64,000 nt of DNA from IMG/VR virus record IMGVR_UViG_3300033808_000111. The stretch is one strand, 5' to 3'. Below are positions 12,966 through 52,725 of this stretch, piece by piece; position 1 is the first letter of the stretch; each line of letters begins with the position of its first letter. Origin of the DNA: an uncultured virus (IMG/VR IMGVR_UViG_3300033808_000111). Taxonomy: Duplodnaviria; Heunggongvirae; Uroviricota; Caudoviricetes. Position numbers and translations under genes: made by a program. A model generated the notes under the pieces. It saw only the letters and a list, made by a program, of their open reading frames with translations. It did not search any database and had not been told where the DNA came from.

Positions 12966-13610
12966 GTGTCGCGAGCAAAGGAGCTGGCGGCTGTCTTGGA
13001 GGACGCGCTCCTCGAGGCGGGGTTCCGGATTCAGATCGCGCGGGCGCCCGATGGCTACTTGATCCGGCTGTTCGAGCCGGAGACGCGCGACCAGATCGCC
13101 GCGCTGCGTACGTTCGATGACGGGGGCGTGCAGCTCGACAGCTACAGGGACTCGGGCGAAGCATTTCGGATCTTGAAGAGGCTTGGGCTCGATAAGCTCA
13201 TCGAGGAGCGTTCGGCGCCGCGCACCGTTCCGGGGATGGCTGCGGGGCGCGTTCCTTATTCTCCCGAGGCGTCGCGCGCGAAGTACTATCTTCGGAATCT
13301 GCCGAACTGGAAGAGAGGCGATCCCACGACCGACTATCCGGGGCGCTTTATCGTCTACGTGAACGGCAAGCACGTCGATGATTTCACGGATCAAGCCGAT
13401 GCCATCCGGGCGGCGAAGAAGATCTGGGACGACCCAGCGACCGTTCGTCTCAAGCCTCCGCCTTGGAGGGAACACGAAGGGCCGCTAGAGCCCGAGGTCT
13501 CGGTGTGCTGGTTCGCGTCCGACGACGATCCGCGAGTCGGTTCGTTTTGGTTCACGGGTTTCTACCAGCTCGGCAAGATCGACCATTTTGGTCGGTTCGT
13601 TGGGTCGTGA
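12966..13610 (+). CDS. AEVLAD-domain paralog plus C-terminal cargo domain
   Basis: ELAAVLEDALLEAGF..DDGGV..KRLGLDKLI then unrelated C-half. Confidence 0.8.
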   Translation: MSRAKELAAVLEDALLEAGFRIQIARAPDGYLIRLFEPETRDQIAALRTFDDGGVQLDSYRDSGEAFRILKRLGLDKLIEERSAPRTVPGMAAGRVPYSPEASRAKYYLRNLPNWKRGDPTTDYPGRFIVYVNGKHVDDFTDQADAIRAAKKIWDDPATVRLKPPPWREHEGPLEPEVSVCWFASDDDPRVGSFWFTGFYQLGKIDHFGRFVGS

Positions 13611-13639
13611 TGATGTAGAGGAGGGAGAAGCGAAGGGCG

Positions 13640-14599
13640 ATGGCGAGTGTTGTAGAGGAGACGAGGGACGCTGAGCAGTGGTGCCACGTCATCGCTGACG
13701 CGCTCATGGATGAGCACTTCGAAGTAATCTCGCGTGGGATGCGAATGGGGCACTGCTTTCTTCAGGTCGAGGAGCGTGAGACGCCTCGCGGTCGCGCGAC
13801 GCTCATCGTCGACGACGACGGTTTCATCGAGATCACCGAGGTGGGCGGCGGGGGTGCCGAGAAGGTCAGGGCTGCCCTCGAGCGGCGCGGGCTCGGTGAG
13901 AACCTCATGGCCGGCGAGCCTCGCGGGTTCGACTTCGAAGAAGAGGAAGCCGTTCTGCTCGAGATGTCGAAGGAACTGGAGGTTTCGATGGACGATCTCG
14001 AGATCGCCCACTCGAGCCTCGAGCGCATGAGCGGCGGCACGCTTTGGGAGGTCACGCTCGGCAACCAGGAGTGGGAAGTCGCGCGCGATTACGACCAGGC
14101 ACGCGACTTGGCCATCGCTATGGTCGAGCAGGACCTCGAGACCGATCCCGAGATCTTCAGCCGCGATTTCCTCGCGAGGCACATCGACGAAGATCGTCTG
14201 CGTCGCGAGCTTTATTCCGACGTCCTCAACATGAGGGAAGAGGACCTCAGGGACGAAGCAGAACGTCGTCCTGACGATTTCTGGCGCCACTACGAACGCG
14301 CGGGCTTCGATGCTCCCGAAGAAGACGAAGAAGGCAACCGGCGCGACCCCGAAGACAGCGAGATCGAGGAGCTTGCCGAGCACGAGACAGACGAAGAGCT
14401 GCGCGACCCGATGCAATACCTCGAGAACATCTACGGCCGAGAAGATGCCGTGGCGCAGGCGCTCGAGATCGCTCCCATCAACACGCGTGAAGCTGCCGAA
14501 GACGTCGTGCGAGGCGACGGGCCCGGGCAACGTCTCTCGGGTTACGACGGTGAGCTTCACGAGACGCCGGTGGGGTGGCAGTACTGGAGAACGAATTGA
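13640..14599 (+). CDS. fusion of AEVLAD domain and acidic RETPSG-family domain
   Basis: WCHVIADALMDEHF..DDGFI..RRGLGENL then DFEEEEAVLLEMSKEL..HETPVGWQYW. Confidence 0.85.
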   Translation: MASVVEETRDAEQWCHVIADALMDEHFEVISRGMRMGHCFLQVEERETPRGRATLIVDDDGFIEITEVGGGGAEKVRAALERRGLGENLMAGEPRGFDFEEEEAVLLEMSKELEVSMDDLEIAHSSLERMSGGTLWEVTLGNQEWEVARDYDQARDLAIAMVEQDLETDPEIFSRDFLARHIDEDRLRRELYSDVLNMREEDLRDEAERRPDDFWRHYERAGFDAPEEDEEGNRRDPEDSEIEELAEHETDEELRDPMQYLENIYGREDAVAQALEIAPINTREAAEDVVRGDGPGQRLSGYDGELHETPVGWQYWRTN

Positions 14600-14970
14600 C
14601 CATCGAGGCTACTGTCATCAAAGTCCTGGACTTTCGCACTTATGAGCGCGTCACGATGGGCATTCTGCGCGTGTCGGAGAGCGGCGTGATCGCGGACCTC
14701 GTTCGGGCGGAGAACCCAGACCCGCGGATAACGGCGCGCGACTGGATGGCTGCGCGCGCCCTCATGCACCGGCTGCAAGACGCGGTGATGTCCCATGAGA
14801 GCGCGCAGCGCGCTCAATGTTCCTTCGGCGGAGCGGCTCCGGCGCAAAGTGCCGGGGCTGGGCCCCACGGAGGGAATCCGACGAGGGCGTCAGCCGCGGA
14901 TGGCCGAGCAGGTTTCAGCCTCAAGGCGTTCAACGGCTTGGGAGCCAACGAGGTTCGGCTCGATGTCTGA
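14596..14970 (+). CDS. hypothetical protein containing an in-frame family C repeat
   Basis: TTGA overlap; SAGAGPHGGNPTRA insert. Confidence 0.5.
   Translation: MTIEATVIKVLDFRTYERVTMGILRVSESGVIADLVRAENPDPRITARDWMAARALMHRLQDAVMSHESAQRAQCSFGGAAPAQSAGAGPHGGNPTRASAADGRAGFSLKAFNGLGANEVRLDV
14842..14889 (+). repeat. repeat family C (GCTGGGCCCCACGGAGGGAATCCGACGAGGGCG)
   Basis: also at 28768-28817 and tandem at 45642-45744. Confidence 0.85.
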
Positions 14971-15113
14971 AGTCTCGTATCGGCATCGTTACGTTTTGCG
15001 TCGACTCGTGCAGCTGCCAGGTCGGCTGCTGCTTGGGCCTGTTTGGCGCTGGATTCTGACTCGCTGACTGACGCAGTTGCGCGAAGTTGCGCGAAGTTGT
15101 AGTTTGCCTGGAT

Positions 15114-15154
15114 GCCCTCCTCGCTCCTCACGTCGCTCACTGGGGCCCAGCCCG
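15114..15154 (-). repeat. repeat family D variant (minus strand)
   Basis: reverse complement CGGGCTGGGCCCCAGTGAGCG..GAGCGAGGAGGGC. Confidence 0.6.
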
Positions 15155-15178
15155 TCACCTCGCCGGAGGCTCGGTAAC

Positions 15179-16621: not shown

Positions 16622-16936
16622 ATGACGTTCGGGTTCATCGTTTTCGGATTCGTCTCGCTCTCGATCTGCATGATGGCGCTGGCGGCTTCGGCGCGTGGCG
16701 TATTCAAGTCGCAGAGCGAGGCGCTCGCGGCCCAGAGCAAGGCGCTCGAGGCGCAAGTGAAGGCCATCAATGCTTCCAATGATCTCGTTCTTGCGCTTAA
16801 GCGCGAGATCCGTCTCCAGGGCGACGAGATAGCGGCGCTCGGCAAGTACATGGAGACCGTCGACGCGCTCGCGGTTTCCTCGGCTGATCTCGCGAAGGCC
16901 ATCGACGAGCGCCTGCGCGCGAAGGAGCGGAACTGA
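16622..16936 (+). CDS. TM plus coiled-coil protein
   Basis: MTFGFIVFGFVSL.. followed by heptad-rich helix. Confidence 0.55.
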   Translation: MTFGFIVFGFVSLSICMMALAASARGVFKSQSEALAAQSKALEAQVKAINASNDLVLALKREIRLQGDEIAALGKYMETVDALAVSSADLAKAIDERLRAKERN

Positions 16937-17493: not shown

Positions 17494-17528
17494 TGACGAT
17501 GACAATGATGCCAAAGGACGCAGTCCGT

Positions 17529-30838: not shown

Positions 30839-31237
30839 GTGGCTAGGCCCGAGCACCTCCATCCCTACGGTCCGCGGCCCTCGAACTACGGTGAGATGCT
30901 CGCGAGGTTCAAGGAGCGGCAGAACCGTGACATCTCGAGGTGGACCCGCGACAATACCGACGCCGACATCGAGGACATGGCGCGCGGCGGCGACGGAGGT
31001 CCCGTGGGGGGCGGCGAGACCATCCGCTCGCGGTTCTACGGTCCGGACTGGTCGGATCGGGACTTCAAGGACCTGCTCGGCGAGCTTGCTGAGAACGAAG
31101 TGCGCCTGCGGATCGAAAATCTCGTACGCGAGACCGAGGAGCAGATCCGCTACATCGGCCACCAGGGGCGCCCGGCCGGGATCACGGAAGCCGAGGTGCG
31201 CGCGGCGGTCGTGGCAGCGCTGGGACGTGCACGATGA
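30839..31237 (+). CDS. MARxEHL-tag protein 2
   Basis: MARPEHLHPY; RBS GAGG. Confidence 0.85.
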   Translation: MARPEHLHPYGPRPSNYGEMLARFKERQNRDISRWTRDNTDADIEDMARGGDGGPVGGGETIRSRFYGPDWSDRDFKDLLGELAENEVRLRIENLVRETEEQIRYIGHQGRPAGITEAEVRAAVVAALGRAR

Positions 31238-31539
31238 GCGCGAGCGTGAAGCTTCGCGACAAGGCTTTCGAGAGGGCTCAAGTCGTGGCCGATGTCCTCG
31301 AGGAGGCAGGTTTCTACATCGTCACGCGGCCGTTGAGGCAAACGCGTGGTGCGCACACAAATGAGGTGTGGACTCGTGCGGCGTCTTCGTCTGCGATGCT
31401 GGATGAGGCGCTCATCGTGGTCAACGACGACGGGCGCATCGGTGTGTTTTCGGATTACTATCCGAGTCTCGAGATTCGTACGCGTGCAGCTTTCAAGAAA
31501 GCTGGCCTCGGCGAGTGGTTCGACGAGATGATGCAATGA
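31234..31539 (+). CDS. AEVLAD-domain family paralog
   Basis: ERAQVVADVLEEAGF..DDGRI..KKAGLGEWF. Confidence 0.85.
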   Translation: MSASVKLRDKAFERAQVVADVLEEAGFYIVTRPLRQTRGAHTNEVWTRAASSSAMLDEALIVVNDDGRIGVFSDYYPSLEIRTRAAFKKAGLGEWFDEMMQ

Positions 31540-35513: not shown

Positions 35514-36098
35514 GTGGCATCCGGTTCAGCAGTCGAGCGTGGCGAGGTCCTCGCGGACGCTTTCAGGGATTTGGGGTATGGTGGCGCGATCGGCCACGAG
35601 AGCGCGGGCGGCTACGAGGTCGAGGCTTGGGACCCGGAGGACCTCGAGTACCAGTACGCCAAGTACGAGAAGATGTCCGACAGGATGCGCCGCACCGGAA
35701 AGGATGCTGTGGCCTACGTCCTCGTGCGCGATGACGCGAGCGTCAAGGTTCTGAGGGAGCGTCAGCCAGGGTTCGTGGAAGCGCTCTTGAAGCGCATCCG
35801 CTGGTCGCAGCCGAGTCAGATCAAGCGCATCGACATCTTGGGACGACGATGGTTCCAACGGACATACGGGAACACGTACCACTCGGTCGAGATCTGGATC
35901 GACGACAATCTCGTACACAAGGTCCCCTTCGCGTACGGCTACGACCGCATGTACGAGCAGACCGCCATCGATTGGCTTGCCAAGTTCGGTTACTTGCCCA
36001 AAGAGGCTGCTCGCTGGCCGACGAGGCGCGTCGCGGAGGACCTCGGAATCGAGATCGAGTCGACTGCGGTCGACGTCGACCGCAAGAGAGATCTCTGA
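35514..36098 (+). CDS. AEVLAD-domain paralog plus cargo (RRWF..GNTYHS..YGY)
   Basis: ERGEVLADAFRDLGY. Confidence 0.85.
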   Translation: MASGSAVERGEVLADAFRDLGYGGAIGHESAGGYEVEAWDPEDLEYQYAKYEKMSDRMRRTGKDAVAYVLVRDDASVKVLRERQPGFVEALLKRIRWSQPSQIKRIDILGRRWFQRTYGNTYHSVEIWIDDNLVHKVPFAYGYDRMYEQTAIDWLAKFGYLPKEAARWPTRRVAEDLGIEIESTAVDVDRKRDL

Positions 36099-36400
36099 TG
36101 GCGAAGCGAGAGAAGCGCGAACGCGACATCGCGAGAGAGCGCGCCGAGGTGCTCGCGGACGCTTTCAGAGATTTGGACTTCATGGTTGACGTTGAGCCCG
36201 TGGAGGGCTGGCCGGAGCTTTGGTCGCTCTGGATCTACGGCGGTAGGCCCGCTCCTTGGTACATGGCGTTCAGGCTCGATGTCGGCGCTCGCGGCGCTGT
36301 CGCTATCCGCTACGAGCGCGACAACGAACACGGAAAGCTGCTCAAAGAATGGCTTCTCAAGATGGACGTGGACAGCTACCTCGCCGAGCGTCAGTGGTAG
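36098..36400 (+). CDS. AEVLAD-domain family paralog
   Basis: RERAEVLADAFRDLDF. Confidence 0.85.
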   Translation: MAKREKRERDIARERAEVLADAFRDLDFMVDVEPVEGWPELWSLWIYGGRPAPWYMAFRLDVGARGAVAIRYERDNEHGKLLKEWLLKMDVDSYLAERQW

Positions 36401-36427: not shown

Positions 36428-36652
36428 ATGGCGCGCAAGAAGAAGACCGGGGAGATGATCGCGGTGCCCGAGCACGAGTACACGTCCGAGCGGACGTTCT
36501 TCGTGTGCCGCGACTATGACAGCGCTTACGCCGTCGCGTCGAATCTCGATGACGCCAAGACGATCGCGCGAGCGATGGAGGGCGAGGGCAAGCACGTCGA
36601 GTTCATCGACGAGGTGTATGGCTACGAGCACACGCTTCACATGGGCTGGTAG
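36428..36652 (+). CDS. hypothetical protein
   Basis: RBS GAGGAG. Confidence 0.65.
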   Translation: MARKKKTGEMIAVPEHEYTSERTFFVCRDYDSAYAVASNLDDAKTIARAMEGEGKHVEFIDEVYGYEHTLHMGW

Positions 36653-36984
36653 TGGGCGCAGCGGAGGAGAAAGCTTCGGTCCTCGGTGACGCTTTCCAAG
36701 AGCGCGGGTTTCAGACCCACGTGACGGAGCGTTACATCATCATGGGGCTGGGAGCGTCGAGCGAGACGGTCCCGACCGAAGATGCGCTCCTTTGGCTGAG
36801 AATGTCTGGCGAAGATCAAGCGATCGTGCTCGTCGTGAAGCCGAACGGGTCGCTCTCGTTCGTCCAAGGCTTTGAGCAGCAAAAGGAGCTGGTGACGAAG
36901 TTTCTCGTTGAGATGGGTCTTGCCAAGTACCTCGGTCCGCACGATCGAACCACTTGGATTCATCGTGCGATGAGAAGGTCATGA
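36652..36984 (+). CDS. AEVLAD-domain family paralog
   Basis: EKASVLGDAFQERGF..PNGSL..EMGLAKYL. Confidence 0.85.
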   Translation: MGAAEEKASVLGDAFQERGFQTHVTERYIIMGLGASSETVPTEDALLWLRMSGEDQAIVLVVKPNGSLSFVQGFEQQKELVTKFLVEMGLAKYLGPHDRTTWIHRAMRRS

Positions 36985-37144
36985 ATCCGAGGTCGGGCTG
37001 GAAGCCCGAGCGAACGACGAGACCGATCGAGCGAAGCGAGGGAAGGTCATGAATCCGAGGTCTGGCTGGAAGCCCGAGCGAACGACGAGACCGACCGAGC
37101 AGGGTCCTATCGAGCAAAGCGAGATGGGAGAGGGAAGGTCATGA
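36978..37144 (+). repeat. repeat family A tandem (68-bp + 92-bp); mini-ORFs 36981-37052 and 37049-37144
   Basis: three GTCATGA junctions. Confidence 0.92.
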
Positions 37145-37497
37145 AGCTACCCGTTGAAATCGCCTTCGAGCGCGCGTCGGTGATCGCTGATGCGTTTCGA
37201 GATCGCGGCTGCTGGGTGCCGGCACGAAGCTTCGAGGACAATAGTCCCGAAGAGGAGAAGTACGGAGCCAAGATGATGGCGGTCTACAGCCCTCGTGATT
37301 GGGTTGGGACGCTCGTCGTATTCGCGAGCGGCAAGATCCGTATCTGGGGTGAAGCGAAAGCGATGCCGCTCAAGAAGACGATGCGCGAGCTTCTGACCGA
37401 GATGGGCCTCGAGCAGTGGATCGAGCCAGGCGGCCCCACGAGTACGCTCGAGCCCCTTTTTCGCGGTGATCCGCGCCGCACATCGGTGAATGATTGA
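37141..37497 (+). CDS. AEVLAD-domain family paralog
   Basis: ERASVIADAFRDRGC..SGKI..EMGLEQWI. Confidence 0.85.
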   Translation: MKLPVEIAFERASVIADAFRDRGCWVPARSFEDNSPEEEKYGAKMMAVYSPRDWVGTLVVFASGKIRIWGEAKAMPLKKTMRELLTEMGLEQWIEPGGPTSTLEPLFRGDPRRTSVND

Positions 37498-42518: not shown

Positions 42519-43115
42519 ATGGCGAGTGGCGGTCAGGCCGCAGTCGTTGGCGACGCGCTCATGGATCTCGGTTTCCGCGTCACTTTTCATTCGCGTCCAA
42601 GCGGCGAGCACCTCTGGGTCACCAAAGGCAAGCGCACTCCTTGGCAGGGCGGGGATTACGACTTGCGCGTAGCTGGGGCAATGATCGAAGTGATCTCCGG
42701 CGACAAAGAGGCGTTCGATCTCCTCGTACGTGCTGGTCTTGGAGGACATTCGCGTCAGGCGTTCATCAATAACGAGACACCGCTCTACTTCGTGCTCGTT
42801 CGCTCTCCCGGTCTCATTCCCGAGAACCTCATCGTCGCTACCTCGCGCGCTCGCGCTGGCAAGGCAGCGCGTGGTCAAGCACGGTGGTGGGCCAATGACG
42901 TTGCCATTGGAGCAGCTGCTGTGGATGACATGTTCGAACAGATCCGGCGAGACTCGGATGATTTTACTCCGATCTGGCGCGACCGCCTCTCGAGCTTGGA
43001 AATTTCATTTGGTACGCTCGATGAGGTGATTCAAGAGCTAGAACAGCACGGAGTCTCGCAAGCGCTTGAAGGAAGAATAGAACGAAGCGGTGAAGGAAGA
43101 GGTGGTGAGAGATGA
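42519..43115 (+). CDS. AEVLAD-domain paralog plus cargo
   Basis: QAAVVGDALMDLGF..RAGLG; alternative start 42498. Confidence 0.8.
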   Translation: MASGGQAAVVGDALMDLGFRVTFHSRPSGEHLWVTKGKRTPWQGGDYDLRVAGAMIEVISGDKEAFDLLVRAGLGGHSRQAFINNETPLYFVLVRSPGLIPENLIVATSRARAGKAARGQARWWANDVAIGAAAVDDMFEQIRRDSDDFTPIWRDRLSSLEISFGTLDEVIQELEQHGVSQALEGRIERSGEGRGGER

Positions 43116-43585
43116 CGATGTTCCCGTTCGATCCCCGCGTCTCCTCGTCGCTCGCGCTCGCGGAGGCTCAGGGGAACAAACCTTGCGGTTGCCGTTGGCG
43201 CTTGTATGGCGGGCGTCCTCTCCGCGAAGTCTCCGATCCCGAGCGCGCCACGCACGCTGACCTCGCCCAGGTCTGCGTCATGCACCGGCGTTGGCTTGGG
43301 GCGATCTTCATCGACCAGAAAAAGCCCCCGAACTTCAGCCACCCTCCGCCCGGGGGCCTTCCGCTCGTGGGACCCGCCTACCAGAGCGCGATCGGCGTGC
43401 CGGGCGGTGGTGGAGGCGTGACGATGCAGCCGTCCATCGCGGGCGCCGCTGTGCCCGAGCAGGTGGGCAACGTGGCGCAGGTCGATGGGCCACTCCATCA
43501 AGCGTCGCGCGACGTCGCGAGGATCGAAGAGGCCCACGAGAACCTGCTCCCGAAGGGTGCCGGTGGCAAGCCGGAGAAGAAATGA
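43112..43585 (+). CDS. hypothetical protein
   Basis: ATGA overlaps on both sides. Confidence 0.6.
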   Translation: MTMFPFDPRVSSSLALAEAQGNKPCGCRWRLYGGRPLREVSDPERATHADLAQVCVMHRRWLGAIFIDQKKPPNFSHPPPGGLPLVGPAYQSAIGVPGGGGGVTMQPSIAGAAVPEQVGNVAQVDGPLHQASRDVARIEEAHENLLPKGAGGKPEKK

Positions 43586-43953
43586 AGAAGCGAGCCGCTG
43601 AAACTCGACTCGAGGAGTCGCGGATGGAACGAGCCGGGGAGCAGGCGGAAGTGCTGGCCGACATGCTTCACGAACTCGGTTTCGGCGTGAGCCAAGTCCG
43701 ACGTTCGTGGGGTGCCGTCTACGCGGCGAGCTTCGGCGTCATCAATTCCGGTTCTCTCGGTCAGAAACATCCTGATACCACTGCGCGAGTCTTGGTTTAC
43801 TCGGGCGGCAGCGTCATGGTCAGCTCGGCCTCACAGCGGTTTCTTCTGAAGCTGCGCGCCTTGTTCGACGTGTTCGAGTCGTACAGGGTTGAGCCTGGTC
43901 TCAGTTACGACTACGAGGTGGGCGGTCAGGCTTTCTCGGCGGAGCTTCGGTGA
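43582..43953 (+). CDS. AEVLAD-domain family paralog
   Basis: EQAEVLADMLHELGF..SGGSV. Confidence 0.82.
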   Translation: MKKRAAETRLEESRMERAGEQAEVLADMLHELGFGVSQVRRSWGAVYAASFGVINSGSLGQKHPDTTARVLVYSGGSVMVSSASQRFLLKLRALFDVFESYRVEPGLSYDYEVGGQAFSAELR

Positions 43954-43957
43954 AGTG

Positions 43958-44509
43958 ATGGGACGCCGCGCCGACGAGCTTGGTCAGGTGCTCATGGATC
44001 TCCTTCGAGAGGCGGGTTTCGACGTTCACGAATGGGATCCCGTGACGGCGGCCGGAGGACGCGTCGTGCGCTTCATCAGCGTGAAGTGGCCTCATGAGGC
44101 CCCGACCTTGGCGTGGCTCGCGCCGGTCGACGAGGGAAAGATCGTGATCGACTGGAAGGGACCGGGCAAGCGCGGACAAGAGGTCATCGACGCGATCGAG
44201 CGCGCGGGCTGGGGCGATCGGCTCGTATCGAGCTTTCAGGTGCTCGACGAGCCAAGTGTAGAGGTGATGACTCGAGTCGTGCGCGATACTTATCCTTCGG
44301 AGAGCTTCGAGTTCACAGAGTTCAAGGACGGGACAGTGCGCGTCGGACCGATGTCGCCATCGATGGGCCAGCGCATCGAAAAGCGTCTGCGCGAGCTTGG
44401 AGTGCTCGAACGCAAAGGGATCTACTTCGCGTTCGAGAGCGTCGGCCGGTTCGTGCAGCCCAACGTGGGCTACCTTTTCTGGGGCGACCCGGGATGGATT
44501 CAGCGCTGA
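43958..44509 (+). CDS. AEVLAD-domain paralog plus cargo
   Basis: ELGQVLMDLLREAGF..EGKI..ERAGWG. Confidence 0.82.
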   Translation: MGRRADELGQVLMDLLREAGFDVHEWDPVTAAGGRVVRFISVKWPHEAPTLAWLAPVDEGKIVIDWKGPGKRGQEVIDAIERAGWGDRLVSSFQVLDEPSVEVMTRVVRDTYPSESFEFTEFKDGTVRVGPMSPSMGQRIEKRLRELGVLERKGIYFAFESVGRFVQPNVGYLFWGDPGWIQR

Positions 44510-44534: not shown

Positions 44535-44930
44535 ATGGCAGCGGAAGCGAGCAAGGCGGAAAAGAGCGCGCTCGTGCTCGCGGACGCGATCCAGGAGCAG
44601 GATCCGGAGAGGTTCTCTTACTTTCCCCAGGCTTTCAGTCGTTTCGAGACCGAAGCCCATTCAGTTCCTCCCGCCTATCGCGTGACCTACCTCAAGTCGA
44701 GCGGATTCCCGCCGGCACCCGACTCGTACCTTCTGACCGTGTGGGGGATCAGGAGCGAGGTCGCCCGCCGTTTCCCGGTGGCAAGCGCTGCGGGGGCCCG
44801 CGCGCACGGCGACAGAGTCTGGCTTGTCGACTTTTTTGTTGACCCGCGCGGCCGCGTCCTCGTCGACTCGGAGCGCGAGAACGGGTTTTCAGACGAGCTT
44901 CTTCGATCGGTTGGGTGGGTCGAGAGATGA
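44535..44930 (+). CDS. AEVLAD-domain family paralog
   Basis: SALVLADAIQEQ..RGRV...ERENGFSDELLRSVG. Confidence 0.78.
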   Translation: MAAEASKAEKSALVLADAIQEQDPERFSYFPQAFSRFETEAHSVPPAYRVTYLKSSGFPPAPDSYLLTVWGIRSEVARRFPVASAAGARAHGDRVWLVDFFVDPRGRVLVDSERENGFSDELLRSVGWVER

Positions 44931-45754
44931 CTTCCTCGAGCGCGGCTTCTTTGGGCAAGCAGGCCGGACAGTGGGCCCAGGTGTTCTCGGACGCTCTTTT
45001 GGAGCTGGGTTATGCCCCCGAGCTGAGGGAGCATCTGGGCGCTCGGCAAGTGCCCGGGGACCGAGTCTGGTGGGAGATCGCGATCTACGACCCGCAAGAG
45101 AGATGGGGCAGGGAGTTCGTCGGGGAGATCCGCGTCTTCGGCCACGGCGAGATCGTCATCTCGGACGAAGGGCAGCGGCCCGGCATCGCGCGCAAGGTCC
45201 TCGATGAGACCCGGCTCGGGTTCGAAGACGTCTCACCGGCGCTCGCGCAGGAAGCCGGCGCCGAGTTCGCGCAGGACAGCGCTGATGAGGTCGACTTCCA
45301 GTACAACCTGCGCGAGCAGCTCGCGGAAGGTGCGGAGATGGAAGCACGCGACCCGAAGAGCGTCGTCCCGGAGTTCACGACAGAGAATCTAGCGAGCAGC
45401 AAGCGCAGTCGAGAGCGGCTCGCACGCGAGATGCTCGAGGACTTCGGACGCGACGTCGCGCGCGATCTGGACACCGACACGGTCGAACGCTACTTCGAGC
45501 GTGTAGGACTTCCTTCGCGTGCCGCGCTCGATTTTTCGGCAGCATTTCTTTCTGGCATGCGTCGCGAGCTTGCCAGCAAGAACATGCGGGAGTGGCTCGC
45601 CGAGATGCACATACTGCCGGTCGTCGAGGCGATCCTCGCGAGTGCGCGAAGCGCGTCCGCTGGGCCCCGCGGAGGGAATCCGACGAGGGCGGGTGCGCGA
45701 AGCGCGCCCGCTAGGCCCCGCGGAGGGAATCCGACGAGGGCGGGGACGAGATGA
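44927..45754 (+). CDS. AEVLAD-domain paralog plus cargo shared with 46065; ends in family C tandem
   Basis: WAQVFSDALLELGY; LA.EAG...A..F..G.R..L. Confidence 0.82.
   Translation: MTSSSAASLGKQAGQWAQVFSDALLELGYAPELREHLGARQVPGDRVWWEIAIYDPQERWGREFVGEIRVFGHGEIVISDEGQRPGIARKVLDETRLGFEDVSPALAQEAGAEFAQDSADEVDFQYNLREQLAEGAEMEARDPKSVVPEFTTENLASSKRSRERLAREMLEDFGRDVARDLDTDTVERYFERVGLPSRAALDFSAAFLSGMRRELASKNMREWLAEMHILPVVEAILASARSASAGPRGGNPTRAGARSAPARPRGGNPTRAGTR
45642..45744 (+). repeat. repeat family C, 51-bp tandem x2 in frame
   Basis: encodes ARSAxAxPRGGNPTRAG twice. Confidence 0.92.
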
Positions 45755-46068
45755 CCAAGAAAACCAAGAAGACCAAGAAGACGACTACGACCGAGGCCCG
45801 CGCCCTCGTGCTCGCCGACGCGCTGATGGATCAGGGGTTCGAGGTCTCGGCCCACGAGTACGAACCGCGCGATGGAGGTCCCTTCTTTTACTTGAACGTT
45901 CGCCGACGGGGAGAAGGATGGATGGGCGGCGACTACGTCGAGCTTCTCGTGGGACGTTCGGGCTCGATCTACGTCACGCACCCGCGCCGCGACACGAGCA
46001 CGCTCAGAGAAGTGCTCGACGCGGTCGAGAGCGCCGGGTTCGGTAGACTCTTGGAGAAGAACGCGTGA
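45751..46068 (+). CDS. AEVLAD-domain family paralog
   Basis: RALVLADALMDQGF..SGSI..ESAGFG. Confidence 0.85.
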   Translation: MTKKTKKTKKTTTTEARALVLADALMDQGFEVSAHEYEPRDGGPFFYLNVRRRGEGWMGGDYVELLVGRSGSIYVTHPRRDTSTLREVLDAVESAGFGRLLEKNA

Positions 46069-46760
46069 TAAATCGTCGCGGATATGAGCAGGCCGCGGTG
46101 CTCTCGGACGTGATCGAAGAGCAAGGGTACGTCGCAATCGTTCAACAGACGCACAGCGGAGACTTTTTCGTGCTGGCCAAGCACAAGAAGTCAGGCGCTC
46201 CAGCAGCGGCGTTCTGGGTCTACGGCCCCGGCGACGTTAGCCTCGGCCTCTACGGTCGTGAGGAGGACATCCTTGGCAAGGCTGGTCTGTCACGCCTCGG
46301 CAAGGAGCGAGATCAAACGCCGCTGACAGTCGCGGAAAAGGAGAATCTGGCGTTCGAAGCGGGCAAGATCTATGCGAGTCAGGAGGTTGAGTCGGCAGCA
46401 TTTCTACGTCGCGTGACCAATGAAATCGAGATTTCTACGACAGAACTCTGGTCGCGCGCGAACGAACTCTGGAACAGATCAGAGCTTCGCGATCAGTTCG
46501 CGCGAGGCTTGATCACTGGGCTCGGGCAGCAGATGGAGCAAGCCGGAGTAGCGCCGCGAGCTTCGCAGGATCTCAAGCGAGCAGGTCTTTCTCTCGAGGA
46601 TCTGCGAGGGACTTCCATCGGTGCGGAGTTCTGGCGCGGAGTTCGCGATCGTCTTGGACAAAAGAGCACGCAGTCCTTCGTCGCAGATGATCTCGTCATG
46701 CCGGCTTTGGAGGAGATCCTTCTGCGACGACGAGCGAGCAGTCGCGGAGGAGTACGATGA
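46065..46760 (+). CDS. AEVLAD-domain paralog plus cargo shared with 44927
   Basis: QAAVLSDVIEEQGY..KAGLS; LAFEAGKIYA..FWRGVRDRL. Confidence 0.82.
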   Translation: MINRRGYEQAAVLSDVIEEQGYVAIVQQTHSGDFFVLAKHKKSGAPAAAFWVYGPGDVSLGLYGREEDILGKAGLSRLGKERDQTPLTVAEKENLAFEAGKIYASQEVESAAFLRRVTNEIEISTTELWSRANELWNRSELRDQFARGLITGLGQQMEQAGVAPRASQDLKRAGLSLEDLRGTSIGAEFWRGVRDRLGQKSTQSFVADDLVMPALEEILLRRRASSRGGVR

Positions 46761-47518: not shown

Positions 47519-47850
47519 TGACCTCTTCGGCGGCAGCGATTCGCGGCTGGACGGACCGGGAGGCCGAGGAGGCGGGCGACGCTGACGGTCGTGCCTGGGC
47601 GCTCCGGACGATGCTCGCCGGTTCGGACGCGCTCGCGCGCTACGCCTCGGGTGCGGGCGAGAGGCGGCAGATGGCGCAGAAGATGGAGACCCTGATGCAG
47701 ATCGTCGCGCGGCAGAACGTCCGGCGTTTCGGGGCGAAGGACAACGCTCGGCGCGAGAGCAAGGTGCACCTCTACGTCGAGGCCTATGTCGCCGGCGCGA
47801 TGGAGGAGCTTGGTCGCGAGGCTTCGAGGCGCGGGGTGGAAGTTCGATGA
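47518..47850 (+). CDS. hypothetical protein
   Basis: coupled on both sides. Confidence 0.6.
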   Translation: MTSSAAAIRGWTDREAEEAGDADGRAWALRTMLAGSDALARYASGAGERRQMAQKMETLMQIVARQNVRRFGAKDNARRESKVHLYVEAYVAGAMEELGREASRRGVEVR

Positions 47851-48431
47851 CTCCTTCAGCGCGCGCCTCGGTCCTTTCGGACGCGATGGAGGAGCTTGGC
47901 CTCGAAGCCTATGTCCACGCGGCCTCGTATCCGAAGAACGCCAAGTACGTGATCGTAGACGAGCCTGCAAACGTTCCGCAGGGCAGAACACGGATGCACT
48001 TGTTTATGGCCCTTCTCACCGAGGACGACTCGATCGTGACGTGGGACGCCGAGCCGATGCGACCGGGACTTGCGCGGGAGCTTTTGTCGCGCGCGGGTCT
48101 CTGGAAGTTCTTCGAGCCCAAGAAAGTCACGTACGATGTTCACCTGGTCGAGTGGGACCTCGGCGGCAATCCTCGTCCGAGCAGAGATTCCATCGGACAA
48201 GTTGAGATCTGGACCGGACGCCGCTGGAACTCTCTCGAGACTGAGCTGCTCTTGTCTCTCGAAAAGTCTCTCCCGGGAGTGACTCGTGATCTCGAGGCTG
48301 TTGATCCTGGTGATCTGGGCGGCGTGCCGCTTGCGCAAGCAGATGCGTTCGACTTGCCGAGACGCATCGAGCTGAGAGAGCGCAGGGGAGAAGGCATTTG
48401 GCGTTTCGAGCTTCGAAGGGTGTTGAAGTGA
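47847..48431 (+). CDS. AEVLAD-domain paralog plus cargo shared with 48559
   Basis: RASVLSDAMEELGL..RAGLWKF; GN..SIG..PR....R......FEL. Confidence 0.82.
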   Translation: MTPSARASVLSDAMEELGLEAYVHAASYPKNAKYVIVDEPANVPQGRTRMHLFMALLTEDDSIVTWDAEPMRPGLARELLSRAGLWKFFEPKKVTYDVHLVEWDLGGNPRPSRDSIGQVEIWTGRRWNSLETELLLSLEKSLPGVTRDLEAVDPGDLGGVPLAQADAFDLPRRIELRERRGEGIWRFELRRVLK

Positions 48432-48562
48432 ATCCGAGATCGAGCTGGAAGCTCGAGCGCCTTTGCGGCGAAGCCGCGACGGCGTCTCCTGCTGCGAAGA
48501 CGCCGGAGGCGTCGTTAGCAAGAACGACGCGATGGACTGACCGTAGGGACGGAACGTCGTGA
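48428..48562 (+). repeat. repeat family A, expanded 131-bp variant with extra hairpins; mini-ORF 48428-48562
   Basis: GTGAATCCGAGATCGAGCTGGAAGCTCGAGCG..AACGACG..GGAACGTCGTGA. Confidence 0.75.
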
Positions 48563-49107
48563 AGCTCGATGCGAAGGCCATCGACGAGCGCACGGCCGTG
48601 CTCTCGGACTCGATCCAGGACCTCGGGTTCGGAACGCAGATCTACTATTGGAATGGTCTCGGGTATCTAGTGGGAGTGAGCGATCCTTCGAGGCCACCGA
48701 ACGAAGACTGGATGACCGAGATTTCCATCAATGAGGACGGCAGCGTGAGCGTCAGCGGCGAGCGCGAGCGCGGTTTCTCCGAGCAGCTCTTGAGGCGCGC
48801 CGCGCCCAGTTGGCGACTCTTGATCCACTACGACAACGGTTGGGAGGTTCACCCGATCGCCGCCGTGATGAACGAAGAAGGCAACTGGGAAGTCGAGAAG
48901 ATTCGCCCATCCATTGGTCGGATCGTGACCCAAGGTTGGTTCAAAGAGCGCATCGTCAGAGCGCTCCACGAGAAGCGCTACTTGCTGCGCTCGTTCGGTC
49001 CCGAAGACGTCGTTCTTGATACCGTTTCCGGCCACGGTCCGAGGACGCTTTGGGTGCGGGACGTAACGACCGATGAACCGCTCTTCGAGCTTAAGGAGAT
49101 CTGGTGA
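48559..49107 (+). CDS. AEVLAD-domain paralog plus cargo shared with 47847
   Basis: ERTAVLSDSIQDLGF..EDGSV..ERERGFSEQLL. Confidence 0.85.
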   Translation: MKLDAKAIDERTAVLSDSIQDLGFGTQIYYWNGLGYLVGVSDPSRPPNEDWMTEISINEDGSVSVSGERERGFSEQLLRRAAPSWRLLIHYDNGWEVHPIAAVMNEEGNWEVEKIRPSIGRIVTQGWFKERIVRALHEKRYLLRSFGPEDVVLDTVSGHGPRTLWVRDVTTDEPLFELKEIW

Positions 49108-49781
49108 AAGCCGCCGCAAGTGAATGGTCCGCGGTACTCGCCGACGGCCTCATGCAGCTCGGTCACGAGGTCCAATTCGAAGAGGAGCGTCACGGCATAG
49201 GTGGTCGCGCCGGAGAGGGCGTCCACATGCGCGTGCTCCATGCGACCGAGGGAGGTGCTGGTGAGCTGGCTCTCGTCTTCGTGCGAAACGACGGAGCGAT
49301 CGAGGTCCAGAGAGAATGGCGTCCTGGTTTCATCTCGGACGAGATGAAGAAGCTGGGCCTCTCAGGAGCGAAGCTCGCGCCGTCGCCCATCTCGAAGAGC
49401 GAGCTGATGGGTCTCGCTTCGCGCTTGAGCTTTCGCACTGGCGGCTCGCCGCCAAAGATCCTCAGCGGCGGATACCGCTGGTCGGACGCCAACGAGAGCG
49501 CGACGTTCGATACGACGACCGAGGACACGAACGTGCCCATGACGACGCTCGTCTCGCTCTTCGACGACGGGAGCTGGGCGCTCACTTTCTTCGAGGCGGA
49601 AGAGGCGCGTGGTGGCGACCTCCGCGATTCTCTCTGGAACCGGCTTTACGGGTCGAGCGATTCTCTCACGCCTTTGCTCGACGAGATGGAGGGCGACGTC
49701 GACGAAGCCCTCGACTACATCGACGATCTCGAAGCGCGGAGGCAGGAGCAGCGGTTTCGGGAAGAAGAGGACGAGGATTGA
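49104..49781 (+). CDS. AEVLAD-domain paralog plus acidic cargo
   Basis: WSAVLADGLMQLGH..NDGAIEVQREWRPGFI..KLGL. Confidence 0.85.
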   Translation: MKAAASEWSAVLADGLMQLGHEVQFEEERHGIGGRAGEGVHMRVLHATEGGAGELALVFVRNDGAIEVQREWRPGFISDEMKKLGLSGAKLAPSPISKSELMGLASRLSFRTGGSPPKILSGGYRWSDANESATFDTTTEDTNVPMTTLVSLFDDGSWALTFFEAEEARGGDLRDSLWNRLYGSSDSLTPLLDEMEGDVDEALDYIDDLEARRQEQRFREEEDED

Positions 49782-49782
49782 G

Positions 49783-50136
49783 CTACTGCAAGTGTGCGCC
49801 GAGCCCAGCGCGCTCGATGACGGCCCTGGCAGAAGCGACGGCCTCTTTCCCGTGGGCGGCGATGTGCCCCCACGAGGCGCGGAGCGAGATCCGCTCGTCT
49901 TCGTCGAGGCCGACCGTCACCCATTCGGCGTCGGGATTCCCGGATTCCCTCGTGTCGAAGTAGTGTGCCTTTGCTCGTGCGAAGGCCAGCTCTATCGCCC
50001 ATTCTGACGAAATCGCGACCGGCGTCGCTCTCCACCCGGCGTCGAGAAACAAGTCCCGAAGGACCTCGAGTCGCATCTTCTCCCGCGCGAGCTGGGCCTC
50101 GGTCCTTCCGACGGTGTGGTTGCGACTCGCAGCCAT
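49783..50136 (-). CDS. AEVLAD-domain family paralog (inverted pair, 2)
   Basis: LEVLRDLFLDAGW..IERAGLG. Confidence 0.82.
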   Translation of the reverse strand: MAASRNHTVGRTEAQLAREKMRLEVLRDLFLDAGWRATPVAISSEWAIELAFARAKAHYFDTRESGNPDAEWVTVGLDEDERISLRASWGHIAAHGKEAVASARAVIERAGLGAHLQ

Positions 50137-50138
50137 GG

Positions 50139-50501
50139 CTATTCCCACCTCCGAGGAGCCAGATGACTGCCGAGCCCGGCGCGCTCGATGACGGCGCGCG
50201 CAGCTTCGATGGCTGCCTCTCCTGCCTTGCCAGCGATGTCGCCCCACGAAGCTGAGAGCGTGATCCGGTCGCTCTCGTCGAGGGCGACGGAAACCCATTC
50301 GAAGTCGATTTCGGGAAGAGGCTCCCGCGGCTCGGTTTGCTTCACCTCGAACATGTATCGATCAAGAGCCACCGGTCGTCTCATAAAGCCGTGCACGTTG
50401 ATGACGCTCTGCTCGACGCGCGTGACTTTCCATCCGACGTCGAGAAAGAGATCGCGGAGCACTTCGAGGCTCTCTTTGGCTCGCTCGAATCGGTTAGCCA
50501 T
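50139..50501 (-). CDS. AEVLAD-domain family paralog (inverted pair, 1)
   Basis: LEVLRDLFLDVGW..IERAGLG. Confidence 0.82.
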   Translation of the reverse strand: MANRFERAKESLEVLRDLFLDVGWKVTRVEQSVINVHGFMRRPVALDRYMFEVKQTEPREPLPEIDFEWVSVALDESDRITLSASWGDIAGKAGEAAIEAARAVIERAGLGSHLAPRRWE

Positions 50502-50544
50502 GCTGCGTCTTGTGATCGTAGCCGAGCGCGGCGAGAATGTAGAG

Positions 50545-50997
50545 ATGACAGCTGCTCGACCTTCGCGGCTTACGCCGCTGCGCCGAACGAACCGTCAGGA
50601 CGCTCACGCGTCCTTCGGTGACCTCGCAGAGCGCGCGCTCCTCTTCGGCGTGGGCGGCTATGTGCTCGAGAACATGCTCTTCGGAGAGCGCAAGTCGGCA
50701 GTGTTCGGCGGTCGCGACATTCCCTTTCTCCCCGTCTACGCCGTCGGTGGATCGCTCGTCACGGTCCTCGGGCCGAGCTTGAAGGCGGCCGGACTGCCCT
50801 CCTGGTGGCGGGCCGTCGTTTACGCGGTGAGCTTGTCGGGAATCGAGTGGGTGGGGTGCAAGATCGACAGAGACTTGGGGGCGTGCTCTTGGGATTACTC
50901 GGGGCGTTCGTGTGCGGCTGTTGGGGAGGGGTGCGTGGATGCGGCGCACGCGGTGATGTGGGGAGCATTGGGGCTCTTGGCCGAGAGGCTCGCTTGA
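50545..50997 (+). CDS. ABC_trans_CmpB-like membrane protein ('putative ABC transporter permease')
   Basis: G..GY..E..PFLPVY..G..IE...G..WDYS..G......WG. Confidence 0.75.
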   Translation: MTAARPSRLTPLRRTNRQDAHASFGDLAERALLFGVGGYVLENMLFGERKSAVFGGRDIPFLPVYAVGGSLVTVLGPSLKAAGLPSWWRAVVYAVSLSGIEWVGCKIDRDLGACSWDYSGRSCAAVGEGCVDAAHAVMWGALGLLAERLA

Positions 50998-51272
50998 AAT
51001 CGGCACGCGACGCGGCCCGAGATCGCGCGGCGGTCATTTCTGATGGCCTTCAGGAGCTGGGGTACAAGACTCAGTTTTCTCGAGCACCGAGCGGTGGCTT
51101 TGAGGTCGTTTGGGTGGATCGGTTTGACGGTATTCCGCTCGGCGAGTTCTGGGTCAAAGATGATGGGATGATCGAGATCTCTTATCTCGGCGAAGAAGAG
51201 ATCTCGAGGGCCATCGAGAAGCTTGGTCTCGGCAAATGGATTTGGCGCGAGTCGGGAGTCGGTGAGCGCTGA
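50994..51272 (+). CDS. AEVLAD-domain family paralog
   Basis: DRAAVISDGLQELGY..DDGMIEI..EKLGLGKWI; TTGA overlap. Confidence 0.85.
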   Translation: MKSARDAARDRAAVISDGLQELGYKTQFSRAPSGGFEVVWVDRFDGIPLGEFWVKDDGMIEISYLGEEEISRAIEKLGLGKWIWRESGVGER

Positions 51273-51547
51273 TGACTTCTAATAAGCGCGAGGAGCGAGC
51301 GGAAGTCATCGCCGATGGTCTTCGAGACCTCGGTTACGACGTGTCGTGGTTCTCGATACTTCAAGACTTGATGATCGTAGATCGAGAACACTTTGCGATC
51401 GGCGATTATCTTGTGCACGACGATGGGATGATCGAGATTGTTCACGAGTATCAGAGCGAGTATCATCGCGAACGCGGTGAGCTGACTGCTGCGCTCGAGA
51501 AGCTTGGTCTTGGAAAATGGATTCTGCGCGAGCCGGTGAGGCGCTGA
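51272..51547 (+). CDS. AEVLAD-domain family paralog
   Basis: ERAEVIADGLRDLGY..DDGMIEI..EKLGLGKWI. Confidence 0.88.
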   Translation: MTSNKREERAEVIADGLRDLGYDVSWFSILQDLMIVDREHFAIGDYLVHDDGMIEIVHEYQSEYHRERGELTAALEKLGLGKWILREPVRR

Positions 51548-51859
51548 TGATTTCGAAGGCCGCGCGAGAAAGCCGAGGTCGTCGCCGATGGTCTCCAGGA
51601 ATTGGGTTACTTAGTCGAGTGGTGGTCGAAGGTCATCGGACGCCGTTCGAAGGATTTGATGTGCGTGGATCGTCGGCTCGGACCGACTGGTCACATCGTC
51701 GCGATCGGCGATTACGTCGTCTCGGACGACGGGATGATCGAGATCCTCCACGAGTACGAGCGGGGCGAGCTTACAGGTGCGCTCGAGAAGCTTGGTCTCG
51801 GCAAGTTCATCGCGCGACCAGTGCCGGAGCGCGCGCTCGTCGAGACTAGAAGGCGTTGA
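51547..51859 (+). pseudogene. AEVLAD-domain paralog with frameshift in first ~8 codons
   Basis: ATG 51547 gives MISKAARE; REKAEVVADGLQELGY..EKLGLGKF lies in the +1 frame with no start codon before the motif. Confidence 0.72.
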
Positions 51860-51862
51860 CCG

Positions 51863-52225
51863 ATGGCCTCTTCCCGCTCTCATCTGACCACGTCTCGCGT
51901 CCGGGACATGGAACGCGAGCGGCAGCAGCGCGCCGAGTGGGCTGCGGTCCTCGAGGATGCGATACAGGACATCGGGTATCTAACGCGCAGATCTTGGGAA
52001 GAACCAGGCCGCATCGTGATCTACGAACCTCTTTCACCGGACGCCAAGATTCTGGAATGGCATGGCACTCCTGTCCTTGTCGACAGCAAACTCGTCGGCG
52101 AGTTTTCCGTGCTCAGTCACCATCACATCTACATCATGAGTGGCGGCAGTGACCGTCGCGCGGTGAGAGAGATCATCAATCGCGCCGGCTTCCCGGACCT
52201 CGAGGACTTCTCGGAGATCTTCTGA
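51863..52225 (+). CDS. AEVLAD-domain family paralog (alternative start 51908)
   Basis: WAAVLEDAIQDIGY..NRAGF. Confidence 0.8.
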   Translation: MASSRSHLTTSRVRDMERERQQRAEWAAVLEDAIQDIGYLTRRSWEEPGRIVIYEPLSPDAKILEWHGTPVLVDSKLVGEFSVLSHHHIYIMSGGSDRRAVREIINRAGFPDLEDFSEIF

Positions 52226-52725
52226 TGGCCACCAAGTCTCTCCGCGAAGCCATCGAGACGGCGAACCAGTGGGGAGCCGTGATCGGCGACTCGCTGATGG
52301 ACCGCGGCTACGAGTGCAAGATCGTCCAGAGCACCAACCAGGGAAAAGACACGCCGGCAGTCGTGCTCGTCGTGCACAGAAGGCGCCATCGCGGCTGGGT
52401 CGGGGACTTGGTCGTCAGGTTTCACCGCGGAAAGATCCGGATCGAGGTCTTGTGGATCCCGAACGCCGAGTCGAGGAATGAGCTTGTCCGGGCGGTCGAG
52501 GATGTCGGGTTCGAGGTTTCCGGGGAGGAACGAAGACTGGTGGATGTGGATATTCCAATCGCATTGGCGGAGTTGCTGGAAGGTTGGGAAGATGAAAATG
52601 CACGGTTCGTTTACCGGGCGTGGAAGGAAGCGGGCGGTGCAGACGATGACGCTGCGGGTTTCGATGCGTTCCTCCAGGCACCTGGAGACATCAGCAGGAG
52701 ACGGGCCGGGTCCAGGCGAGCGTGA
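52225..52725 (+). CDS. AEVLAD-domain paralog plus cargo; stop supplied by family D repeat
   Basis: WGAVIGDSLMDRGY..RGKI..EDVGF. Confidence 0.8.
   Translation: MATKSLREAIETANQWGAVIGDSLMDRGYECKIVQSTNQGKDTPAVVLVVHRRRHRGWVGDLVVRFHRGKIRIEVLWIPNAESRNELVRAVEDVGFEVSGEERRLVDVDIPIALAELLEGWEDENARFVYRAWKEAGGADDDAAGFDAFLQAPGDISRRRAGSRRA

Follow-up and report, generated by a model that had tools for sequence, protein, structure and literature searches.

The stretch of DNA analysed here (hereafter the window, 64,000 nucleotides) comes from an uncultured virus of the Caudoviricetes, IMG/VR record IMGVR_UViG_3300033808_000111, and encodes 28 copies of a small domain called the AEVLAD domain. The domain is N-terminal in all 28 copies. 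In 17 of them it stands essentially alone, with no more than 37 amino acids after it, and in the other 11 it is followed by an additional part of 75-233 amino acids, referred to below as the cargo. On balance we favour an account in which the family grew within one lineage, mostly by tandem expansion, to 28 genes or more and was secondarily fused to resident accessory genes, the domain itself serving as a binding scaffold. A first-pass annotation of the window had described the domain as an N-terminal carrier for swappable cargo domains in about ten members; the 11 extended copies are exactly the eleven genes that it named. Genes are designated below by their first position in the window.

Sequence and predicted structure of the AEVLAD domain

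All 11 named open reading frames (ORFs) were present as written and share an N-terminal block of the form A-x-V-L-x-D-x-L...G...DG-x-I-x-V...L-x-x-x-G-L-G. A hidden Markov model (HMM) was seeded on these 11 ORFs and searched against 939 six-frame, stop-to-stop ORFs of at least 40 amino acids. The first round recovered 26 ORFs and the converged search 28, with E-values of 7e-22 to 5e-11 that are partly circular because the model was trained on these sequences. The shared domain was found in every named gene, in a family that extends well beyond them. It is about 80 residues long and begins no more than about 40 amino acids from a plausible start codon; 26 copies lie on the plus strand and two on the minus strand. 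The literal string AE[VIL]LA[DE] occurs in just three copies, and the motif behind the name thus describes the family only loosely.

An alignment of the 28 copies (A1) has two invariant positions, V8 and D11, and the consensus A-x-E-x-A-x-V-L-x-D-x-L-x-E-x-G ... V-x-x-D-G-x-I ... L-x-x-x-G-L. Nearly all insertions and deletions fall between strands 1 and 3. The predicted family is supported by two independent checks. A profile of the 28 copies retrieved 67 proteins from outside the window, and the AlphaFold2 model built from A1 had a mean predicted local distance difference test score (pLDDT) of 89.1 and a predicted template modelling score (pTM) of 0.78, with secondary structure elements in the order H-E-E-E-E-H (alpha-beta4-alpha). 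For the four closest paralogue pairs the ratio of nonsynonymous to synonymous substitution rates (dN/dS) is 0.17-0.33 at a synonymous divergence (dS) of about 1-1.7, which indicates that the copies are old and have been kept by selection.

Family libraries gave little for the domain: Pfam returned no match at or near threshold, NCBIfam and PADLOC none, and PHROGs one weak match to a single copy (E 0.0025). The best hit in a profile search of A1 against PDB sequences (E 0.014) was judged to be noise, and the ESM Atlas gave no score of 0.9 or above and no informative family. Prediction of a homodimer (two N-domains, from A1) scored 0.10 against a mark of 0.42, which is no answer, and was used neither way. 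The idea of an acidic DNA mimic was set aside, the median isoelectric point (pI) of 5.3 for the N-domains against 6.1 for all predicted genes being too mild a difference. No paper on the domain turned up in the literature on paralogous families in jumbo phages, in a search that did not include the motif itself.

The C-terminal cargos

The extensions represent ten cargo types in the window. Four of these (the cargos of 13640, 35514, 44927/46065 and 49104) have homologues free of the AEVLAD domain. No domain-free homologue was found for the other six types, called orphans here, which were never met apart from the domain or, save for one fused relative, anywhere else. The prediction that cargos would have stand-alone homologues was borne out to that extent. 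Neither the family domains nor the cargos reached a Pfam gathering threshold in any of the 28 window proteins or 32 external proteins, apart from a DUF192 domain in external protein P0035, and no cargo matched a toxin, enzyme, trafficking, secretion or defence family in Pfam, PHROG, NCBIfam or PADLOC.

The cargo of 13640 (13898-14596) belongs to a family with the C-terminal motif E-T-P-S-G-x-x-Y-W, here called ETPSG, that has five copies in the window. The other four are free-standing paralogues without an AEVLAD domain, located at 7477-8334 (plus strand), 8288-9160, 9962-10852 and 46757-47518 (alignment A2). BLASTP matched the cargo to all four (7477, E 2.5e-25; 46757, E 1.4e-13; 8288, E 5.9e-8; 9962, E 0.008), in agreement with the earlier proposal that it derives from this family (then written RETPSG). 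Database relatives of the cargo number 55, and 54 of them lack the N-domain, the exception being the window's own protein. The ETPSG relatives are 211-246 amino acids long in 47 cases, four carry other N-terminal parts, and they were found on contigs of up to 176 kb. One copy, in L005, is 59% identical to the 13640 cargo and occupies a stop-to-stop frame of 232 codons with a stop codon just upstream; it is unfused because that frame has no more than 232 codons. The record title of the L005 contig reads Polyangiaceae MAG (metagenome-assembled genome).

The AlphaFold2 model of the 13640 cargo is mostly helical, with a pLDDT of 91.5. Its best Foldseek match had an E-value of 1.4 and its best VIA match a Z-score of 5.6. 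The latter candidate, T4 endonuclease VII, covered a partial stretch only, and no fold was assigned. A ParBc_2 match in external protein P0098 (E 0.005) fell below the cut-off and had no support from either fold search, and the best match of an A2 profile to PDB sequences (E 0.25) was judged to be noise.

The 35514 cargo had been listed as unique and proved to belong to phrog_6246 (E 4.9e-23; residues 99-194, profile positions 12-113 of 113). Searched with tblastn, this cargo matched 205 phage records, mostly of large Escherichia phages, none of which covers 80% or more of the query. One of the matches lies under a free-standing coding sequence of 121 amino acids in L001.

A common cargo had been proposed for 44927 and 46065, and the two cargos are indeed related. 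Their Smith-Waterman score is 84 (z 7.2; none of 1000 shuffles as high), their BLASTP E-value is 3e-5, and external protein P0078 bridges them, with E-values of 3e-13 and 2e-8 (shared motifs in alignment A3). P0169 (162 amino acids) is a free-standing relative, another relative lies in L003, and in P0060 a 44927-type cargo is placed before the AEVLAD domain. The second proposed pair, 47847 and 48559, did not hold up: BLASTP gave no alignment at E <= 100, and the Smith-Waterman score of 23 is below the shuffled mean of 29, with 948 of 1000 shuffles scoring as high.

P0065 is a fused orthologue of the 49104 protein, 43% identical along the full length, and the 49104 cargo has a cargo-only relative in L003 at 38-40% identity. 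L003 (11.4 kb) contains no AEVLAD domain in any frame and holds homologues of four cargo types: those of 13640, 49104, 44927 and the external protein P0041, the last with 63% identity to the L003 ORF. At 7546-9693 (plus strand) of this metagenome contig, which has a guanine plus cytosine (G+C) content of 67%, the 49104-type and 44927/46065-type relatives share a stop-free frame of 716 codons, which encodes either a single multi-domain protein or neighbouring genes without a shift of frame between them.

Among the remaining cargos, that of 48559 has a sole relative, the likewise fused P0102 (33% identity, E 3.7e-6). No tblastn match was found in phages for the cargos of 12966, 42519, 43958, 47847 and 48559. 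Of the five cargos without relatives (12966, 42519, 43958, 47847 and 52225), only that of 12966 was run against the large protein database; it retrieved only itself among 5.8 billion clusters and matched no family. No relatives turned up for the acidic tail of 52225, which was not searched separately.

The family outside the window

The profile of the 28 copies was run against 1.84 billion cluster representatives (E <= 0.001). Of the 112 proteins returned, 25 were the window's own, 67 were external single-domain proteins of at most 303 amino acids, and the rest were long repeat proteins. These last, about 20 proteins of 495-2168 amino acids, match only profile positions ~20-65, in repeats with per-domain E-values of at least 0.002; they were regarded as false positives and excluded from every count.

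An extension of at least 50 amino acids is absent from 37 of the 67 external members and follows the domain in 27. In the other three (P0057, P0060 and P0096) the domain is at the C-terminus, behind an N-terminal extension; in P0057 (254 amino acids) this part is 170 residues long. P0035 (848 amino acids) combines the DUF192 domain (E 2.6e-15) with three tandem AEVLAD-like domains downstream of it, and P0066 has two copies of helix 1. The N-terminal placement ascribed to the carrier is general in the window and fails in P0057, P0060, P0096 and P0035. Many metagenomic contigs, 1-186 kb in length, contributed the external members, and several of these contigs encode two or more. Outside its lineage the family is narrowly distributed: tblastn with a solo member found nothing among 50,697 records of phages and 72,556 of plasmids.

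Across the whole family there are 41 extensions of at least 50 amino acids, which form 26 BLASTP clusters. Besides that of P0041, two external cargos add to the traced types: that of P0074 has an AEVLAD-free relative in the window itself, the ORF 40543-41001 on the minus strand (BLASTP, 43% identity over 106 amino acids, E 3.8e-25), and that of P0019 matches phrog_6353 (E 1.2e-6). L004, considered as a weak relative of P0065, was spurious, with no HMM match at E <= 1.

Histories of the N-domains and their cargos

A tree of the N-domains (95 rows, P0066 and P0035 left out) was poorly resolved, with 7 of 92 branches starred, so identities were compared directly. The two parts have congruent histories, with N-domains that are mutual nearest relatives, in 49104/P0065 (N-domain at the 98th percentile, cargo 50% identical), P0057/P0096 (99th percentile, 52%) and P0021/P0091/P0109 (76th-99th percentile, 56-65%). 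Incongruent histories, in which the N-domains resemble each other no more than random pairs from the family do, were seen for 13640/P0098, with cargos 59% identical and N-domains 27% identical (10th percentile of random family pairs), for P0030/P0051 (cargo 51%, N-domain 38th percentile) and for five of the six phrog_6246 pairs (cargo 48-62%, N-domain 13th-62nd percentile). The N-domains of 13640 and P0029, by comparison, are 53% identical (above the 99th percentile) and are starred sisters with a Shimodaira-Hasegawa-like approximate likelihood ratio test (SH-aLRT) value of 97, and their tails are unrelated. The triangle of 13640, P0098 and P0029 is as an exchange of parts predicts.

Approximately unbiased (AU) tests, run with fast searches, rejected a single N-domain clade for the phrog_6246 group (p 0.048), 44927/46065/P0078 (p 0.016), 13640/P0098 (p 0.017) and 13640/P0098/P0029 (p 0.027), and did not reject it for the four-member 44927 group (p 0.22). 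These tests are given little weight, as likelihood gaps of 45-105 units between fast searches raise the suspicion of incomplete optimisation. Several fusions are kept in other contigs at 31-49% identity, namely those of P0098 with 13640, P0065 with 49104, P0078 with 46065, and P0020 and P0050 with 35514. P0033 and P0102 also keep the fused architecture; their full-length alignments are partial, with cargo identities of 50% and 33%. The swapping of cargos suggested by the first-pass annotation is consistent with the incongruent cases, and does not fit the stable orthologous fusions of 49104/P0065, P0057/P0096 and P0021/P0091/P0109.

Arrangement of the family members

Within 42.5-53.2 kb lie 18 of the 28 copies, two of them on the opposite strand, and the spacing of genes in runs is mostly -4 to +4 bp. 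The members described below are on the plus strand unless stated, and E-values are those of the family HMM.

Before this main array the solo members are 7058..7360 (100 amino acids, E 7.9e-17), 11088..11450 (120 amino acids, E 4e-16), 11437..11784 (115 amino acids, start uncertain between 11401, 11407 and 11437, E 1.9e-12), 31234..31539 (101 amino acids, E 9.8e-18), 36098..36400 (100 amino acids, E 6.7e-16), 36652..36984 (110 amino acids, E 2.3e-15) and 37141..37497 (118 amino acids, E 8.5e-20). The first of these lies directly 3' of a subtilase-like ORF at 5865-7061 on the plus strand (Peptidase_S8, E 3e-7), the end of which is 4 bp inside the start of 7058. Three fused members belong to the same part of the window: 12966..13610 (214 amino acids, E 3.7e-21; N-domain 12972-13193, orphan cargo of 138 amino acids at 13194-13607), 13640..14599 (319 amino acids, E 3e-21; N-domain 13667-13897, followed by the ETPSG cargo of 233 amino acids) and 35514..36098 (194 amino acids; N-domain 35526-35807, phrog_6246 cargo of 96 amino acids at 35808-36095).

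The main array contains eight extended members. Orphan cargos are carried by 42519..43115 (198 amino acids, E 4.7e-17; cargo of 123 amino acids at 42744-43112), 43958..44509 (183 amino acids, E 7.4e-18; cargo of 97 amino acids at 44216-44506) and 47847..48431 (194 amino acids, E 2.2e-18; cargo of 108 amino acids at 48105-48428). The two members with related cargos are 44927..45754 (275 amino acids, E 3.4e-20; cargo of 177 amino acids at 45221-45751) and 46065..46760 (231 amino acids; cargo of 155 amino acids at 46293-46757). The others are 48559..49107 (182 amino acids, E 8.2e-21; cargo of 100 amino acids at 48805-49104), 49104..49781 (225 amino acids, E 7.1e-22; cargo of 138 amino acids at 49365-49778) and 52225..52725 (166 amino acids, E 1.5e-17), which ends in an acidic tail of 75 amino acids (52498-52722, tail pI 4.4).

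The solo members of the array are 43582..43953 (123 amino acids, or 109 from 43624, E 2.9e-14), 44535..44930 (131 amino acids, matched in two pieces with E 4.9e-11 and with a long insert within the domain in A1), 45751..46068 (105 amino acids, E 8.7e-19), 50931..51272 (about 113 amino acids, start uncertain, E 7.6e-21), 51272..51547 (91 amino acids, E 8.4e-20), 51551..51859 (about 102 amino acids, no in-frame start before the domain, E 1.7e-21), 51863..52225 (120 amino acids, E 2.1e-18) and 52821..53183 (120 amino acids, start uncertain, E 1e-12). The two minus-strand members, 49783..50136 (117 amino acids, E 1.7e-14) and its closest paralogue 50139..50501 (120 amino acids, E 1.5e-15), form a sister pair (SH-aLRT 98) with a dN/dS of 0.33.

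At 51545-51602 the gene upstream of 51551 ends in TGA TGA, and the ATG at 51547 misses the frame of the 51551 domain by one base. The first in-frame start of this member is a TTG at 51602, use of which would remove helix 1. A frameshift, a pseudogene or an indel introduced in assembly could lie behind this frame problem.

A 51-bp unit is present in two tandem copies (96% identical) at 45642-45744, with a 33-bp near-copy 31 kb away at 14857-14889. All copies lie inside the 3' ends of the ORFs 44927-45754 and 14575-14970. Both encoded proteins end in similar P-R-G-G-N-P-T-R-A-G strings, the last ~35 amino acids of 44927 being translated repeat, and the C-terminus of ORF 28360-28857 has a similar peptide match. 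The repeat looks like a DNA-level element (regulatory, or a terminator-like stem) that is read through, rather than a protein motif.

The element and the gene neighbourhood

The G+C content is 60-66% throughout the window and about 63% for the genome, and the ORFs read almost exclusively from the plus strand. Neighbours that could be identified comprise a helicase fragment, an Rv2525c-like glycoside hydrolase, the subtilase-like protein, Ku, dihydrofolate reductase (DHFR) and NUDIX proteins, a HAD_SAK_2 protein, a metallophosphoesterase, a DDE transposase and DUF1653; PHROG matches in the window are to DNA helicase, Ku, DHFR, NUDIX and phrog_6077. The majority of the remaining ORFs have no match. 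The genes for the Ku-like end-binding protein (15077-15940) and DHFR (16936-17493) lie between two groups of family members. The DDE transposase, which has a SWIM zinc finger, is encoded just past the main array on the minus strand (55202-56581), which suggests an insertion sequence within the element.

No capsid, portal, terminase or other structural gene was found in the 64-kb window, and no near-identical DNA was found among deposited phages. A 451-amino-acid window protein is 49% identical to a protein of L002, an IMG/VR record of 411,618 bp with terminal repeats, which is not a close relative because its G+C content is 44%. A search of L002 with A1 gave no match, which shows little since no candidate passed the initial filter. 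Our reading is that the element belongs to a large, novel, unclassified phage-like genome, of which the window covers a portion without virion genes. This genome probably holds further family members beyond the window, with P0057 likely among them.

Interpretation

In the account that we favour, an alpha-beta4-alpha domain of about 80 residues has expanded, mostly in tandem, into the present set of genes. The domain works as a unit alone; most copies are solo and apparently under purifying selection. Eleven copies have become joined to unrelated C-terminal modules. The traceable ones are accessory genes normally free-standing in related elements, so the joins appear to have arisen as the expanding domain accreted onto genes next to it, and some re-assortment of N- and C-terminal parts among paralogues appears to have come later. 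The domain may be a small protein-binding scaffold with a core of helix 1, the DG-x-I-x-V hairpin and the C-terminal G-L-G helix, in which the length-variable beta1-beta3 loops could set target specificity. Solo copies would then act through binding alone, and fused forms would tether an extra activity to the scaffold's target. The packed, co-directional genes would probably be co-expressed as an accessory battery during infection.

Several points weigh against this account. The binding scaffold is suggested solely by the conservation pattern and size of the domain. No library match gives a function to the domain or to a cargo (Pfam, NCBIfam, PADLOC; from PHROG, phrog_6246 only). Foldseek found no match to the N-domain model in PDB or BFVD at E <= 0.001, and the best Z-score in a wide structural search with VIA was 6.5 (5wi2_B), within the range of chance arrangements; with no convincing neighbour, fold assignment from these searches was dropped. 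As an origin could be traced for only four of the ten cargo types, accretion onto resident genes is an extrapolation from these four. The disagreement between N- and C-terminal histories could stem in part from faster divergence or saturation of the N-domain, which is short. Finally, since the window has no virion genes, the family may yet have a role in the virion.

The carrier proposed in the first-pass annotation, taken as a delivery or sorting module for interchangeable effectors (by capsid packaging and injection, or by localisation in the infected cell), seems to us unlikely. The modular architecture that inspired it is real: a constant N-terminal part bears mutually unrelated add-ons of 26 types across the family, some of the same cargos occur on unrelated N-domain paralogues, cargo cassettes exist free-standing, and with a subtilase-like ORF directly upstream of the first member proteolytic processing is conceivable. 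However, 17 of the 28 window copies and 37 of the 67 outside copies carry nothing of at least 50 amino acids, the domain is C-terminal in three external proteins and triplicated in another, and several fusions are stable orthologues. Nor was a known toxin or enzyme recognised in any cargo or an immunity-like pairing seen, and the genes lie amid replication and nucleotide-metabolism genes, not head genes.

A further reading, to which we give little credence, is that the domain is a transferable tag in one large GC-rich phage lineage, grafted onto conserved free-standing proteins (ETPSG, phrog_6246 and others) and also made solo. Every protein with the tag would be brought to a single phage-specific structure or complex of the host, with the variable beta1-beta3 loops tuning the choice of partner. 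If true, the phage would encode a sorting or assembly code that uses a folded domain and not a peptide signal.

Fusion by incidental read-through is similarly improbable. Loss of a stop codon or a change of frame in arrays with 4-bp overlaps would yield two-domain proteins as neutral by-products, or these could be artefacts of gene calling or assembly. The very tight packing of the genes fits such an origin, as do the start-proximal frame problem at 51551, the passage of the 44927 tail through a DNA repeat and the order of parts in P0060, which is the one expected had a cargo tail run on into the following family gene. Against this, no interruption breaks the fused ORFs, the N-domain ends in every case just past the G-L-G helix, and the architecture persists in other contigs at identities of only 31-49%, which implies long-term maintenance.

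An origin of the C-terminal parts as strongly diverged tandem copies of the AEVLAD domain is very hard to credit, even with four extensions near the domain in size (96-108 amino acids) and weak second 'domains' in hmmsearch (independent E-values of 0.4-5.7), given that no extension was a hidden copy when searched with the family HMM with all filters off (best E 0.08), the 13640 cargo has a confident, different, mostly helical model, the 35514 cargo belongs to an independent phage family, and true tandems are readily detected where present, as in P0035.

Comparison with known systems

The window shows paralogue expansion in what is probably a large phage, largely in tandem, with 28 copies in 64 kb. 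A ~35-copy expansion of a zinc ribbon is described for Bacillus phage G (PMC7824862). The likeness lies in dozens of paralogues of one small domain in a large phage, with function guessed from context and a narrow phyletic range. The present family differs in having an alpha-beta4-alpha domain without metal ligands, in carrying heterogeneous add-ons on about 40% of copies and in an expansion that is common to several related metagenomic contigs.

Polyvalent proteins, as described by Iyer et al. 2017 (PMC5512222), combine several domains with disparate, mostly enzymatic activities, from a catalogue of 131 domains. As in those proteins, unrelated domains are joined here in one polypeptide of a mobile element, some also occur free-standing, and the 716-codon frame of L003 combines two cargo types. 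The AEVLAD fusions, in contrast, have two domains per protein, are 166-319 amino acids long and match no catalogued enzymatic Pfam domain. Polyvalent proteins are characterised by entry into the host with the DNA, through association with the virion or a transfer apparatus; the present proteins are known from genes alone, in a window without structural genes.

Polymorphic toxins, the subject of Zhang et al. 2012 (PMC3482391), likewise have a constant N-terminal part, diverse C-terminal domains and free-standing cassettes, and the incongruent pairs described above may point to recombination between the two parts here as well. Here no cargo contains a recognisable toxin domain (Pfam, NCBIfam, PADLOC) and the N-domain matches no known trafficking or secretion family. 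No immunity gene pattern was seen, downstream genes being mostly family members, in searches that targeted no immunity family specifically. Most members also lack a C-terminal domain, and the host of the genes is a phage-like element, not a bacterial chromosome. The likeness to polyvalent proteins and polymorphic effectors drawn in the first-pass annotation is apt for the architecture, and with no toxin, enzyme or trafficking match it stays an architectural analogy.

The internal proteins of phage T4 have a shared capsid-targeting signal, a short cleaved peptide of about ten residues. They resemble the present family in placing a shared N-terminal element on unrelated small phage proteins in a variable locus, and differ in that the element here is a folded domain of 80 residues that is mostly found alone.

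The VIA neighbours of the N-domain were the KA1 domain of Chk1 (5wi2_B; root-mean-square deviation 3.7, 73 residues aligned), the VCR of METTL16 (6m1u_A, Z 6.4) and the NRD of RnlA (7aex_A, Z 5.2). The model resembles KA1-like and TBP-like two-layer alpha/beta domains in having a helix packed on a four-stranded antiparallel sheet, at Z-scores that are common for unrelated arrangements, with identities of 7-13% and no Foldseek match at the threshold given above. KA1-like and TBP-like domains act as binding modules in their proteins.

The AEVLAD family is an uncharacterised new family, and the phenomenon that it exemplifies, paralogue expansion in very large phages, is already known. Absent from Pfam, PHROGs, NCBIfam and PADLOC and with no clear neighbour by fold, it still accounts for at least 28 genes in one genome. 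So many apparently selected genes mark an important function in a group of large uncultivated phages. The mixture of solo and fused copies, together with free-standing partners, offers an experimental handle on binding and on the effect of a cargo. ETPSG and phrog_6246 are two more uncharacterised families, and their link to the AEVLAD domain may help to assign them a role.

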